DNA from: a virus
Lineage: Duplodnaviria > Caudoviricetes
Length of the DNA: 64,000 bases
Reading direction: 5' to 3' (one strand)
Virus record (IMG/VR): IMGVR_UViG_3300008259_002461
Of this stretch, positions 45,853-53,957 are shown piece by piece. Each line of letters begins with the position of its first letter. Within the stretch, counting starts at the first letter, position 1. A program made the position numbers and the translations under genes. The notes beneath the pieces are model-generated. The model did no database searches. It was not told where the DNA came from and saw only the letters and a list, made by a program, of their open reading frames with translations.

Positions 45853-46298
45853 GAAACTTCGCTTTTGCCTTTTGCAATTGGTACTACATTAATATAACCA
45901 GCGCCGCGATTTGCATCCATGCCTTCTTCACTTAGCATTTGTGATACAATGTCGCGGAACCAACGATCTACAACTTCTTCATCTGGATCACCTTCAAACC
46001 CGTATCCAGCTTGTCTTAATTGTACTATAAAAAGGTCATTCCAGTCAAGCTCAAAAAATCCATTCCTAATATTTTCTGGATTAACTTTAGTATCAAGCAC
46101 CGCTACCCAAGGTTCTCCTTTAACTGTAGCACGTTCTTTTGGTGTCAATTTAGCTTGTTCTTCTGCTTTGGCAGCACGTTCAGCAGCCTCAGTGGCTGTT
46201 TTGGCTGCTTTGGCAGCGGCTGTAGCTATTGCCATATTACGTTCAGCTTCTGCCTTGATCTTATCTATGCCAAATAATTTTTCTATAAATTTTTTCAT
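45849..46298 (-). CDS. Hypothetical protein
   Basis: Start moved to 46298. Confidence 0.7.
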   Translation of the reverse strand: MKKFIEKLFGIDKIKAEAERNMAIATAAAKAAKTATEAAERAAKAEEQAKLTPKERATVKGEPWVAVLDTKVNPENIRNGFFELDWNDLFIVQLRQAGYGFEGDPDEEVVDRWFRDIVSQMLSEEGMDANRGAGYINVVPIAKGKSEVS

Positions 46299-47155
46299 TA
46301 AGTACCCCATTCATTTTTAAATAGCGGCACTTGCAAACGATCGCTATAGCGTAATCCGTTTTTCATTGCCAGTAATGCTACATTCTTATTGTTTAGTGCG
46401 TACACACTTTCTACACCGCCAACTGGCATTAGATAAACATGCCCGTCAAAACCAGCCGCACGATATTCTTCAGTTGCACGTTTAGCATCTTCAAAATCTT
46501 GTTCTGTAGCAATAACAAACTTCAAATATGCTGTACCAACTTTTTCGTATTCACAAACTATTTCAGGAAGAATTGCTTCTTCCCACTTCTCACCACTACA
46601 TGGAAGTTTAGCACTTACACTGAATGTAACTTCTCTCTCGTCACTACCAAGAAACCAATCTGTTAAGTATTCTTTAAATTCTGGAGTAAGTCTCTGGGTA
46701 CCGTTTGTTTCAAATGTAATCTCTTTCAAACCCGCCATCTTAGGATGACTTAGCAAGTCTGGATAAGCACGTTGCCAACCTAGTAAAGGTTCGCCGCCTG
46801 TAATTACAAGATGTTCGTCTTCCCACTCATTGTATGGCAGTATCTCCATAATGCGATCAGCAATGGCATCACTAGTAAGCATTGGACTTAGATCTTTAAA
46901 TGCTGGATGCCAACTTGCATAACTATCACATCCTGTACTTACTAACGGAAGTTCTTCATATTTTTGAAAAGACTCTATATTTGCATGTGTATACGCAATA
47001 TCATCTGCTTCAATACTAATTTTATCACGCGGCATACCAAAGCCTGCACATTTAAAGTTGCAGCCGAATGTGCGTAAAAAGACACTAGGTACACCCATGT
47101 ACCTACCTTCGCCTTGTATACTGTAAAAAAGTTCTGCTATTTTTATTTTGCTCAT
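46298..47155 (-). CDS. queE: 7-carboxy-7-deazaguanine synthase (radical SAM)
   Basis: ELFYSIQGEG, FLRTFGCNFKC, ITGGEPLL, ETNGT and RLQVPL. Confidence 0.88.
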   Translation of the reverse strand: MSKIKIAELFYSIQGEGRYMGVPSVFLRTFGCNFKCAGFGMPRDKISIEADDIAYTHANIESFQKYEELPLVSTGCDSYASWHPAFKDLSPMLTSDAIADRIMEILPYNEWEDEHLVITGGEPLLGWQRAYPDLLSHPKMAGLKEITFETNGTQRLTPEFKEYLTDWFLGSDEREVTFSVSAKLPCSGEKWEEAILPEIVCEYEKVGTAYLKFVIATEQDFEDAKRATEEYRAAGFDGHVYLMPVGGVESVYALNNKNVALLAMKNGLRYSDRLQVPLFKNEWGT

Positions 47156-48308: not shown

Positions 48309-49148
48309 TTATCTCGGTGCAAACTCTTGTTGTAATTTGATATTGTCAAAGAATTCTTTCTTTGTATGAGGATCATCTTTAAATGTTCCTTTAAGGACTG
48401 TAGTCTGTGTTAGTGAGCTATGCGCCATAATGCCGCGATTCTCACAACATCCATGTGTTGCTTGAATGTATACTGCTACGTTTTCGGAGTCAGTAGCTTT
48501 ACTAATCTCACGGGCAATGTCGTTGCAAAGCTCCTCCTGGAGTGTGCCTCGTCTAGCACACCACTGTGCAATACGTGTGTACTTGCTGAGCCCAATAAGT
48601 TTCTGAGCGGCAATAATACCAATATAAGCAACGCCACTAACGGGTTGATGATGATGACTGCACATACTGCGAAGCTCACTACGAACAACCAACATACCTT
48701 CGTAACGGTCCTGCGAGTCGTTTGGAAATGCTGTTGCGTCTGGTCCTGGTTCATATCTGCCACTCATAATTTCGTTGAAGTACATTTTAGCAAGCCGTCT
48801 TGCTGTACCATGCGAGTTAGGATCGTTTTCACGATCAATCAACAAAGTATCTAATACTTGTTCAAATGCTTCTGTAGCTTCGTTGATTAAATGTTCTTTA
48901 TCACTTTCGTGTAAGTAATCACTTATATTGTCTCCAGCCCAATATCTCTTTCCTTCTCTTTTCATTTTAGCACGTAGTACAGCAGATAGACTAGATTCCT
49001 TATATCCGCCGTCACCTGCCATTGCGTCAAGTGCTGTTTCTTTTTTAATATAAACCGGCTTACCCAATGGTTCATATTTCTCTTCAACAAACTCCCTGTT
49101 GTCAGGACCGTTCATTATCGGATCCGGTTTAAATTCTGCTTTTGTCAA
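48309..49148 (-). CDS. folE: GTP cyclohydrolase I
   Basis: TARRLAKMY, SMCSHH, GLSK..RI, LQEEL and HGCCENRG. TTG start follows GGAG. Confidence 0.95.
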   Translation of the reverse strand: MTKAEFKPDPIMNGPDNREFVEEKYEPLGKPVYIKKETALDAMAGDGGYKESSLSAVLRAKMKREGKRYWAGDNISDYLHESDKEHLINEATEAFEQVLDTLLIDRENDPNSHGTARRLAKMYFNEIMSGRYEPGPDATAFPNDSQDRYEGMLVVRSELRSMCSHHHQPVSGVAYIGIIAAQKLIGLSKYTRIAQWCARRGTLQEELCNDIAREISKATDSENVAVYIQATHGCCENRGIMAHSSLTQTTVLKGTFKDDPHTKKEFFDNIKLQQEFAPR

Positions 49149-49155
49149 TTTTATT

Positions 49156-49182
49156 CTCCGAGTTATAGACGTGGATGTCTAT
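49156..49182 (-). promoter_or_regulatory. 5' leader hairpin abutting the folE Shine-Dalgarno
   Basis: AUAGAC-AUCCAC-GUCUAU (6-bp stem) then AACUC-GGAG. Confidence 0.45.
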
Positions 49183-49188
49183 TGTTAA

Positions 49189-49217
49189 ATTATATACTTT
49201 ATTTAGATCGTTGTCAA
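49189..49217 (-). promoter_or_regulatory. Consensus sigma70 promoter for folE
   Basis: TTGACA-17 nt-TATAAT. Confidence 0.8.
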
Positions 49218-51799: not shown

Positions 51800-52181
51800 C
51801 TTTCTTACCTTTCCAATCTTGTAGTACAAGATCGTATACTGTTTTGAAGTTTTCGTATACCTTTGCTAGTGCAGGGTATTCTTTACACATAGATTCAACT
51901 TCAACTATTTCGATATGCGTGTTTTGTGTGGTTACCCACCATTGGGGGTCTACAGGGCTTATTGTAGTGTAAGTTCCACCAGCGCCGCTGGTTATCGTAT
52001 TATATCCACCTGCACCACTGCCTATACTAATAGTATCATCAAGAGTTATTGTATAACTGCTATCTATTGAACCTAGATCTTGTGCTAGGATGCCAACACC
52101 GCTACCGCCAAGATATGTAGTTGTTGAACCGTATGTGTCGTTTAAATTTATAACAACAGTGTTGGAATCTTTATCATCCAT
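51783..52181 (-). CDS. Hypothetical protein
   Basis: G/S/T-rich N-terminus and helical C-terminus. Confidence 0.65.
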   Translation of the reverse strand: MDDKDSNTVVINLNDTYGSTTTYLGGSGVGILAQDLGSIDSSYTITLDDTISIGSGAGGYNTITSGAGGTYTTISPVDPQWWVTTQNTHIEIVEVESMCKEYPALAKVYENFKTVYDLVLQDWKGKKDAENS

Positions 52182-53265
52182 TTATTGCCTCATAAAGAGC
52201 TTTTCCTGAGAAGAATTCTTTTTTAAGTTTTGCTGTTTGTTTAAGTAAGCTAGGAAGAAAACTTTCGTAATTTTCCATATATTCAACTACTTGATTTACT
52301 ATTTGTTTTCTATTTTGAATATAAGATCCAAAATCTTCTGTCCATGTACTAGGATACTTAAACTCTGCTAAAGCCATTTCAGAATAGCTTAAACGATCAG
52401 GAACCATTGGAATAGCATTTACTAGAGCGCCTTCGTACCAACTAATACCTAATGTTTCTTGCAAGTTAGCTGAAAACACTAATTTAGCACGACCAAGAAT
52501 ATTATGATATTCGTTCTTAGTTAATTGTTGCTCTTGACAAATTACAAATTCATACTGAGGTAGTTGTTCTTTAAGATCGCGAAAAATATCAACTTGTTTC
52601 TCGGGAGCAATACGATGAGGGAAAACAATTAAATTTTCCTTATCCATGCATTTGTAACTGTCTAGGCTGTGTTCTAGATATTCCATAGGCCAGCCCACAC
52701 GTTTGATTCTAGGATGTTCGCCAGCCAATGCATCAGCTATATCATCTTCTATCCAAGGATTATCTAGACCAAACAATGTTCTTACAAACATGTCAATGTG
52801 AAAATCTGTAGCAAAGAAGTTATCGTCGTATGTAAAAAACATACTCTGTTCAGCATGTCTTACCCAAGGCTTGTTTCCAATCAGTCGACCTAAGAAATCT
52901 TGAGGATCATAACTACCAGCATGCCATAAGCCACCAATTCTGATATTAATGTTTAGCAATTCAGCCATGTAACGAAGCTGTATAACTGTAGGGTTCCACG
53001 CATCAGTATAAAGGAAGTAGTCGCCATCTTTAACATCTCCCCTACAAAACATCTCCCCTATGGTTTCCAACTGTTTACTTTTATAAACATTAGTACCACC
53101 AAAATTAAGAAATGCTCCAGGAGTTGTAGCTTGTGGTGTATCACCGCCACTAATGACTACTACTTCTTTATTCGTAGCATGATGCAGTTGTTTAGGTAAG
53201 TATTCCTTCCACTGCTTAGTATAGCGAGTGTCAACTGCTTCAATATCTACGATATAGATTGTCAT
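52174..53265 (-). CDS. GT-B (GT4-like) glycosyltransferase
   Basis: FPHRIAPEKQ, NLQETLGISWYEG (ExFGxxxxE-like) and VPDRLSYSEM. Confidence 0.75.
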   Translation of the reverse strand: MTIYIVDIEAVDTRYTKQWKEYLPKQLHHATNKEVVVISGGDTPQATTPGAFLNFGGTNVYKSKQLETIGEMFCRGDVKDGDYFLYTDAWNPTVIQLRYMAELLNINIRIGGLWHAGSYDPQDFLGRLIGNKPWVRHAEQSMFFTYDDNFFATDFHIDMFVRTLFGLDNPWIEDDIADALAGEHPRIKRVGWPMEYLEHSLDSYKCMDKENLIVFPHRIAPEKQVDIFRDLKEQLPQYEFVICQEQQLTKNEYHNILGRAKLVFSANLQETLGISWYEGALVNAIPMVPDRLSYSEMALAEFKYPSTWTEDFGSYIQNRKQIVNQVVEYMENYESFLPSLLKQTAKLKKEFFSGKALYEAING

Positions 53266-53532: not shown

Positions 53533-53922
53533 TTAAAGATTGAATGGATAATAGATAAGTGAGCCGTTTTCTCCATCTTCGGAGACTTCTATTTCGACAA
53601 AGCGGCCTGGAAACTTTGAACGAATTTGCTGATACAAATCATCTGAAATCATCTCACATGATTTGTGATTCAGTTCTAGTGTGCCTTGATTATAAAGATT
53701 TTCTAACCAACGCTTAAATTGAATAAATTCGATGTCACGATCGTCGTGAAACACTTCGATACGAATTTTAAAGTGAAAAATGTGTCTATGGGGATAGCCT
53801 AGAAAACTTACGTCATACTGATCTCCAGTTTTTAGATTAGGGTCTGTAAGTGCTGCCGGGTAAAGATGAATGCCTTCTTTACGGAAGGTTACCCAGATGC
53901 TTTTTGTAATTGCTGTACTCAT
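53533..53922 (-). CDS. queD: QueD/PTPS-like T-fold enzyme
   Basis: EGIH..HRHIFH metal site, IEFIQFK, SCEMI and EDGENG. Confidence 0.6.
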   Translation of the reverse strand: MSTAITKSIWVTFRKEGIHLYPAALTDPNLKTGDQYDVSFLGYPHRHIFHFKIRIEVFHDDRDIEFIQFKRWLENLYNQGTLELNHKSCEMISDDLYQQIRSKFPGRFVEIEVSEDGENGSLIYYPFNL

Positions 53923-53928
53923 GTTCTT

Positions 53929-53957
53929 ATGATACTTTCAATGTAGGTAGTTGTCAA
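53929..53957 (-). promoter_or_regulatory. Sigma70 promoter, probably leaderless transcript
   Basis: TTGACA-17 nt-TATCAT with the ATG 6 nt downstream. Confidence 0.65.

Follow-up and report, generated by a model that had tools for sequence, protein, structure and literature searches.

Known leader RNAs and the folE leader of a lake giant phage

The THF-II RNA (RF02977), a hairpin of approximately 50–60 nt with internal loops that occurs in Alphaproteobacteria, lies in the 5' UTR of folE and adjoins the Shine-Dalgarno sequence (SD). The preQ1-I riboswitches of type III, with the E. coli yhhQ leader as reference (RF00522; PMC10622847, PMC11625349), are tiny H-type pseudoknots on translational leaders that are associated with 7-deazaguanine metabolism and form a 3-bp P2 with GGA or AGG of the SD. 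In preQ1-I RNAs, a strictly conserved specificity C stands directly before the P1 3' strand and is preceded by A (types II and III) or U (type I) (PMC11625349). Binding of preQ1 goes along with repression of expression in this class.

The leader compared with these systems comprises 35 bases and precedes folE of a lake giant phage. It is located in a stretch of 64,000 nucleotides, which is referred to as the window. An earlier reading of this DNA, made from its letters alone (the sequence-only reading), had assigned folE to the first step of the 7-deazaguanine route, with which we agree, and had described the leader as a hairpin (AUAGAC, AUCCAC, GUCUAU) followed by AACUC and GGAG. This description was exact; the element lies on the minus strand, as do the genes around it. 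The parts of the locus are:

48309..49148, minus strand: folE, GTP cyclohydrolase I, 279 aa (Pfam PF01227, E = 6e-40; phrog_2197)
49212..49217, minus strand: −35 hexamer TTGACA; the TGA stop of an upstream 68-aa ORF is at 49220-49218
49200..49206, minus strand: CTAAATA element in the promoter spacer, recurrent across loci
49189..49194, minus strand: −10 hexamer TATAAT, with a 17-nt spacer to TTGACA
49177..49182, minus strand: hairpin 5' arm AUAGAC; its universal core GAC is 49179-49177
49171..49176, minus strand: loop AUCCAC; the candidate anti-SD UCC is 49175-49173
49165..49170, minus strand: hairpin 3' arm GUCUAU; its universal core GUC is 49170-49168
49160..49164, minus strand: tail AACUC, conserved, candidate pseudoknot loop L3
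49156..49159, minus strand: SD GGAG; its GGA (49159-49157) is complementary to the loop UCC
49146..49148, minus strand: UUG start codon of folE after a 7-nt spacer from the SD; homologues align from residue 1

A search with the Rfam models for preQ1 and folE-associated (THF-II) RNAs, proposed as a check together with the sequence-only reading, placed the element in neither family. Searches with 601 nt, and with 61 nt at the laxest filters, gave no match on the element at E ≤ 10, and permissive thresholds yielded only chance matches of snoRNA and CRISPR type elsewhere. The folE leader thus matches no RNA family catalogued in Rfam. Its place in the folE 5' UTR, beside the SD, is as in THF-II, but the Rfam model of the latter gives no match at E ≤ 10.

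The likeness to preQ1-I suggested in the sequence-only reading holds for the layout, which parallels type III, whereas a match to RF00522 and several defining features are absent. Common to both are the association with 7-deazaguanine metabolism, a short pyrimidine-rich loop (UUCCCUCAC in the E. coli RNA, AUCCAC here and AUCCCUC in one sub-lineage), a C directly before the 3' arm that is preceded by A or U, and, ahead of P2, a conserved segment that is reached through a linker varying in length. The tiny H-type pseudoknot and the 3-bp P2 with GGA or AGG of the SD have candidate counterparts in the folE leader. On the other side, the loop has 6 nt instead of the 9 in type III, and the universal P1, which is supported by covariation, has 3 bp instead of 4–5. 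In preQ1-I, a U directly follows the P1 5' strand, whereas the folE leader has an invariant A first and U second. The three L3 adenines of preQ1-I, which take part in the quintuple base motif and the C-preQ1-A-U quadruple, immediately precede P2; the folE leader has CUC or AUC at this place, and its AA lies 3–4 nt further upstream. Finally, P1 of preQ1-I is closed by a conserved G-C floor pair (G5), whereas the closing pair of the folE leader varies and its invariant G-C is the third pair. Speculatively, variation of the closing pair would suit a ligand that, like 7-deazaguanine or CDG, lacks the preQ1 aminomethyl group. The folE leader also differs in its distribution: all copies found belong to uncultured phages and stand before folE, in modules of the DpdL type that lack QueC and in which preQ1 is not expected.

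Conservation of the hairpin, loop and tail

Taken alone, the hairpin of the window is not beyond chance: folding of this single sequence gave a minimum free energy of −5.7 kcal/mol (z = −1.24), and such an inverted repeat was present in 20 of 100 shuffles. The hairpin is judged real because of the comparison across loci. A protein search of IMG/VR with the window FolE retrieved 596 relatives, and the element was found just ahead of the folE start, or of a small ORF preceding folE, in 67 of the best 80 loci. In an alignment of 59 distinct sequences that had been gathered without requiring a stem, the three loop-proximal pairs formed in every sequence, two of the three positions showing four pair types. 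Covariation scored 0.335 compared with 0.09 in shuffles (none of 500 reached 0.335) and with at most 0.043 when the partners were slid; RNAalifold independently recovered the same 3-bp core.

All three loop-proximal pairs were also present in 136 of 136 uncultured-phage loci with distinct FolE proteins, again without a stem requirement. Eight core types were observed (GUC/GAC, 55 loci; GAC/GUC, 54; GCA/UGC, 16; in addition GCC/GGC, GCG/CGC, GGG/CCC, GGG/UCC, and GUG/CAC), and the core type changes at least 47 times on the FolE tree. The stem covariation in related phages that the sequence-only reading had asked for is therefore found. The third stem pair is always G-C, the loop-closing pair varies (C-G 114, A-U 20, G-C 3, G-U 1), and the single G-U is a pair solely in the sense strand. 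The 6-bp stem described before needs to be narrowed: the hairpin itself is real, but only its three loop-proximal pairs are universal, whereas the outer three are specific to the lineage of the window. We consider it very probable that the folE leader is a genuine conserved regulatory RNA.

The loop follows the consensus A-U-C-C-N-C, with A1, U2, C3, C4, and C6 invariant or nearly so and all four bases seen at position 5. Among 143 regular-expression parses, in which a few instances were parsed twice, AUCCAC occurred 100 times, AUCCUC 18 times, and AUCCCC, AUCCGC, AUCCCUC, and AUACCUC once each; most of the remaining loops are parses of the same loops in an alternative register. The last loop base was C in all instances, and the base before it was A (100) or U (18), rarely C or G. 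The tail read AACUC in 123 of the 143 parses, the others being AUCAUC, AACAUC, AACAUA, and one AACUA; taken together with the SD, the consensus AAC(A)UC-GGAG is invariant or nearly so. Hairpin and tail are separated by up to 11–16 nt in some instances. Loop and tail are kept across two phage FolE subfamilies of approximately 38% identity: the element stands ahead of 40 of 75 members of the second subfamily, whose proteins are about 38% identical to the window FolE. In this second subfamily (loci L141, L166, L184, and L318-L397), CAHHFQN replaces the zinc/active-site motif CSHHHQP.

The complementarity between the loop UCC (49175-49173) and the SD GGA (49159-49157), pointed out in the sequence-only reading, is present in the window and in nearly every copy. 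That this pairing forms an SD-masking H-type pseudoknot, as also proposed there, is a candidate assignment: all six columns of UCC:GGA are invariant in the 59-sequence alignment, which makes covariation uninformative about the knot, and the ribosome in any case constrains the SD. A sub-lineage with the SD AUAGGAAAA carries the loops AUCCGC, AUCCCUC, and AUACCUC. The last of these lacks UCC, yet its CCU could pair with AGG of the SD; when intermediates of this AUACCUC/AUAGGAA variant were sought, the AUCCGC and AUCCCUC loops were found with the same tail. The shift to CCU:AGG, a single event in one lineage, suggests compatibility with a loop–SD knot. As an H-type pseudoknot, the fold would be sterically ordinary, L1 having 1 nt (A), the junction 2 nt (N, C), and the tail 5–8 nt. 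The tail AACAUAGGAG persists in loci that have no hairpin (L003 type), so part of its conservation may be unrelated to a knot.

The element is linked exclusively to folE and adjoins its SD. A covariance model (R1) built from 59 sequences gave one match in the 64-kb window, with 53.2 bits (E = 2e-15); the next match reached 11.8 bits. Four related contigs of 209–327 kb contained one strong model match each, ahead of folE, and a fifth, 92% complete, contained none. An exact-pattern scan of IMG/VR hit at least 117 stretches; among the matches listed, 92 directly precede a folE homologue, 4 are followed by an ORF of approximately 130 aa and then by folE, and 1 is at the end of a contig, while the remaining ones are stemless and located in GC-rich DNA. 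A pattern scan of 186,000 prokaryote genomes gave no genuine instance among the 120 matches listed. In cultured phages (INPHARED), the only match to 1.3 kb of DNA was to a coding region of one Vibrio phage, and a search with the 40-nt element gave only partial chance matches. The ORF between leader and folE belongs to a family of about 125–132 aa (29–48% identity) that is present in some phages of both FolE subfamilies:

L009:2603-2998: ORF of the ~125–132-aa family between leader and folE
L078:2603-2989: ORF of the same family
L388, after 1097: ORF of the same family

Owing to its position, this ORF would be the first to be controlled by the element in such phages. Neither Pfam nor PHROG gave a match for it, and the window contains no homologue.

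Promoter, start codon and pathway genes

The hexamers TTGACA and TATAAT at a distance of 17 nt match the sigma-70 consensus in 12 of 12 positions, and a promoter scan found no other 12/12 match between 46 and 53 kb. The sequence-only reading had let the transcript begin at about 49182, at the foot of the hairpin; the exact start is a prediction from promoter geometry, with the usual +7 position pointing to about 49182. Near-consensus sigma-70 promoters at the same spacing were found in 73 of 137 motif instances, whereas the remaining copies directly follow an upstream ORF; many copies have no promoter of their own and are internal to a transcript (L001 type). Across the promoter-bearing loci the −10 hexamer ends 8–13 nt ahead of the conserved core-stem G, and the mRNA would thus begin 1–6 nt before the core stem.

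The promoter spacer contains a further recurrent element. Of 137 motif instances, 88 have CTAAATA 17–25 nt ahead of the conserved stem G; in the extended form (C/T)CTAAATA(A) (49200-49207 on the minus strand of the window), it occupies the same place in L003, L004, L020, L024, L330, L342, and others. It is kept in hairpin-less folE loci, even where it overlaps the 3' ends of different upstream ORFs (...LQKPK*). Elsewhere in the window CTAAATA is not enriched (10 copies versus 11.3 expected). As it resembles the T4-type late promoter TATAAATA, it may represent overlapping early and late promoters or a regulator site.

The SD stands 5–11 nt ahead of the start codon in all motif instances. UUG serves as the start of folE in 91 of 143 motif parses (approximately 64%) compared with 6 of 33 folE loci without the hairpin, 25 of these 33 loci using AUG; these are raw counts, uncorrected for phylogeny. 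In related folE loci the hairpin is cleanly lost, with the promoter and a short SD leader kept, and it is therefore dispensable in some lineages.

Three further genes of the window bear on the interpretation of the leader:

46298-47155: QueE-like gene
53533-53922, minus strand: 129-aa T-fold-like ORF (DpdL-like) with LGYPHRHIF
52174-53265, minus strand: 363-aa gene, 3 kb from the leader; relatives in L556, L557, L559, and L560

The LGYPHRHIF of the T-fold-like ORF corresponds to LxxxHRHxF, the signature of DpdL, a proposed CDG decarboxylase (bioRxiv 10.1101/2023.04.13.536721). A DpdL-like gene 63–76% identical to the window ORF lies near folE in five of five related giant-phage contigs, all of which lack QueC; the relevant base is thus more likely to be 7-deazaguanine or CDG than preQ1. 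The QueD motif CxxxHGH was not found in the window, and in relatives queD is 30–57 kb away from folE. The 363-aa gene ends 10–15 nt before the leader in three motif-bearing contigs and lies approximately 1 kb upstream in a fourth; a search within 10 kb of folE in G003, a contig that lacks the motif, did not find it. A search of the literature on phage 7-deazaguanine DNA modification gave no mention of a riboswitch.

Two other leaders of the pathway were observed. At 53929-53957 on the minus strand, TTGACA, 17 nt, and a TATCAT that ends 6 nt before the AUG precede the DpdL-like gene, the mRNA of which may be leaderless or nearly so. The queD leaders of two related contigs (L562:1392-1470 and L563:1392-1470) carry a different, larger element. 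It comprises a GC-rich piece with UCAUCCC or UCGUCCC and, after this, a hairpin CCUAUG...CAUAGGAG that sequesters the SD; the folE-leader model R1 does not match it.

Explanations for the conserved leader

Our preferred reading, held tentatively and short of being probable, is a riboswitch-like, metabolite-sensing pseudoknot that would control translation of folE, by analogy with preQ1-I. Such a cis-acting RNA would act on the first enzyme of the phage 7-deazaguanine DNA-modification pathway. A strong early-type promoter would start the mRNA at the foot of the short hairpin, and the loop UCC would pair with the SD GGA 14 nt downstream to give an H-type pseudoknot of approximately 30 nt. AACUC would run along the minor groove of the stem, with the invariant last loop C at the helix junction; from the positions of the invariant third G-C pair and of the tail AA, docking of L3 adenines in the minor groove would be conceivable, and the unconstrained loop base 5 would be the counterpart of the L2 base that is flipped out. 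Since three base pairs are too weak alone, an effector is proposed to lock the knot and hide the ribosome-binding site. The likeliest effector would be a metabolite of the pathway that presents a guanine-like face, for example 7-deazaguanine, CDG, or a base or pterin related to them, and the junction C would read it as in preQ1-I riboswitches. The predicted outcome is feedback control on the drain of GTP, with the weak UUG start keeping basal initiation low. In its most specific form, this reading makes the leader the smallest natural riboswitch class, of approximately 28–30 nt and restricted to phages, which would recognize a 7-deazaguanine-type base (7-deazaguanine or CDG rather than preQ1) via the junction C and shut off folE translation; we regard this version as conceivable but rather doubtful. 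To our knowledge, a 3-bp universal stem with a 6-nt loop is smaller than any validated aptamer, which counts against a riboswitch; the clean loss of the hairpin in related folE loci weighs on the same side.

The same covarying stem with a fixed 6-nt loop and one free position is the classic signature of a protein-bound hairpin, and a translational operator, at which a phage protein would bind the loop and AACUC-GGAG and block or activate 30S binding, is a possibility to be taken seriously, if also a rather doubtful one. The 3-bp core, too weak to fold alone, would fit such a binder. The T4/RB69 gp43 operator, the MS2 coat-protein hairpin, and lambda boxB are protein-bound phage hairpins that resemble the folE leader: each is short, combines a covarying stem with a fixed loop, and is placed next to or across the ribosome-binding site of a single gene. 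A difference from these systems is the negative result for a regulator: no RegA or RegB homologue (PF01818, PF10715) exceeded the cut-off in five related, incomplete contigs, in a search that recovered no positive control, and a RegA- or RegB-type mechanism gains no support from it. Candidates for the binder are FolE itself, in an autogenous circuit, and other proteins of the modification module, among them that of the 363-aa ORF. If FolE or a linked module gene provided the binder, the element would be expected to accompany folE through two divergent subfamilies, as it does, and the 363-aa gene is at or near the motif in four motif-bearing contigs and missing near folE in G003. However, domain searches identified no RNA-binding domain in FolE or its neighbors, the FolE N-terminus varies (227 to 280 aa among motif carriers), and hairpin and tail are separable, by the distances given above. 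The upstream 68-aa protein was rejected as a universal partner because its gene is absent from the related motif-bearing contigs.

An arrangement without any effector, in which the 5' hairpin, with or without a transient loop–SD contact, and the UUG start set mRNA stability and a fixed low level of translation, appears unlikely; a function as thermometer or processing site would fall under the same reading. Hairpins near a 5' end protect against 5'-end-dependent decay, and the folE hairpin lies within 1–6 nt of the predicted 5' end; the enrichment of UUG starts with the motif and the lineages that do without the hairpin point in the same direction. But a stabilizer could do without a fixed loop, a fixed third G-C pair, and a conserved tail, five of the six loop bases stay the same through the at least 47 stem changes, and the many promoterless copies are internal to a transcript. 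Highly improbable is an operator at the DNA level, with the inverted repeat as the site of a dimeric DNA-binding repressor overlapping the promoter +1. The repeat does overlap the predicted transcript start of a consensus promoter; the half-sites, however, change and stay complementary around a conserved asymmetric loop, which is the opposite of a palindromic operator, G-U is tolerated on the sense strand, and the motif also occurs without a promoter.

Three other candidates were tried and rejected. If the loop AUCC paired with GGAU of 16S rRNA (1529-1532), the two mRNA segments would stand in the wrong order with respect to the SD to form one colinear helix, and position 5 of the loop is free of constraint. 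The hexamer TATAAC, considered as a sigma-70-dependent pause element in the initially transcribed part, is not conserved. A model in which the UUGACA start region competes with the arms of the stem fails for GCA/UGC and other cores.

Under either the metabolite-sensing or the protein-operator reading, the leader is a compact, portable element of approximately 35 nt with a clear readout, which lends itself to in vitro testing and may serve as a synthetic control part. If it is a protein operator, it marks a gene-specific translational regulator in abundant lake giant phages. If it senses a metabolite, the lower size limit for natural aptamers would be pushed down, riboswitch biology would gain a new ligand class (7-deazaguanine or CDG), and the first regulatory logic for phage 7-deazaguanine DNA modification would be described, by which the phage would gain feedback over the supply line for the hypermodification of its own DNA.
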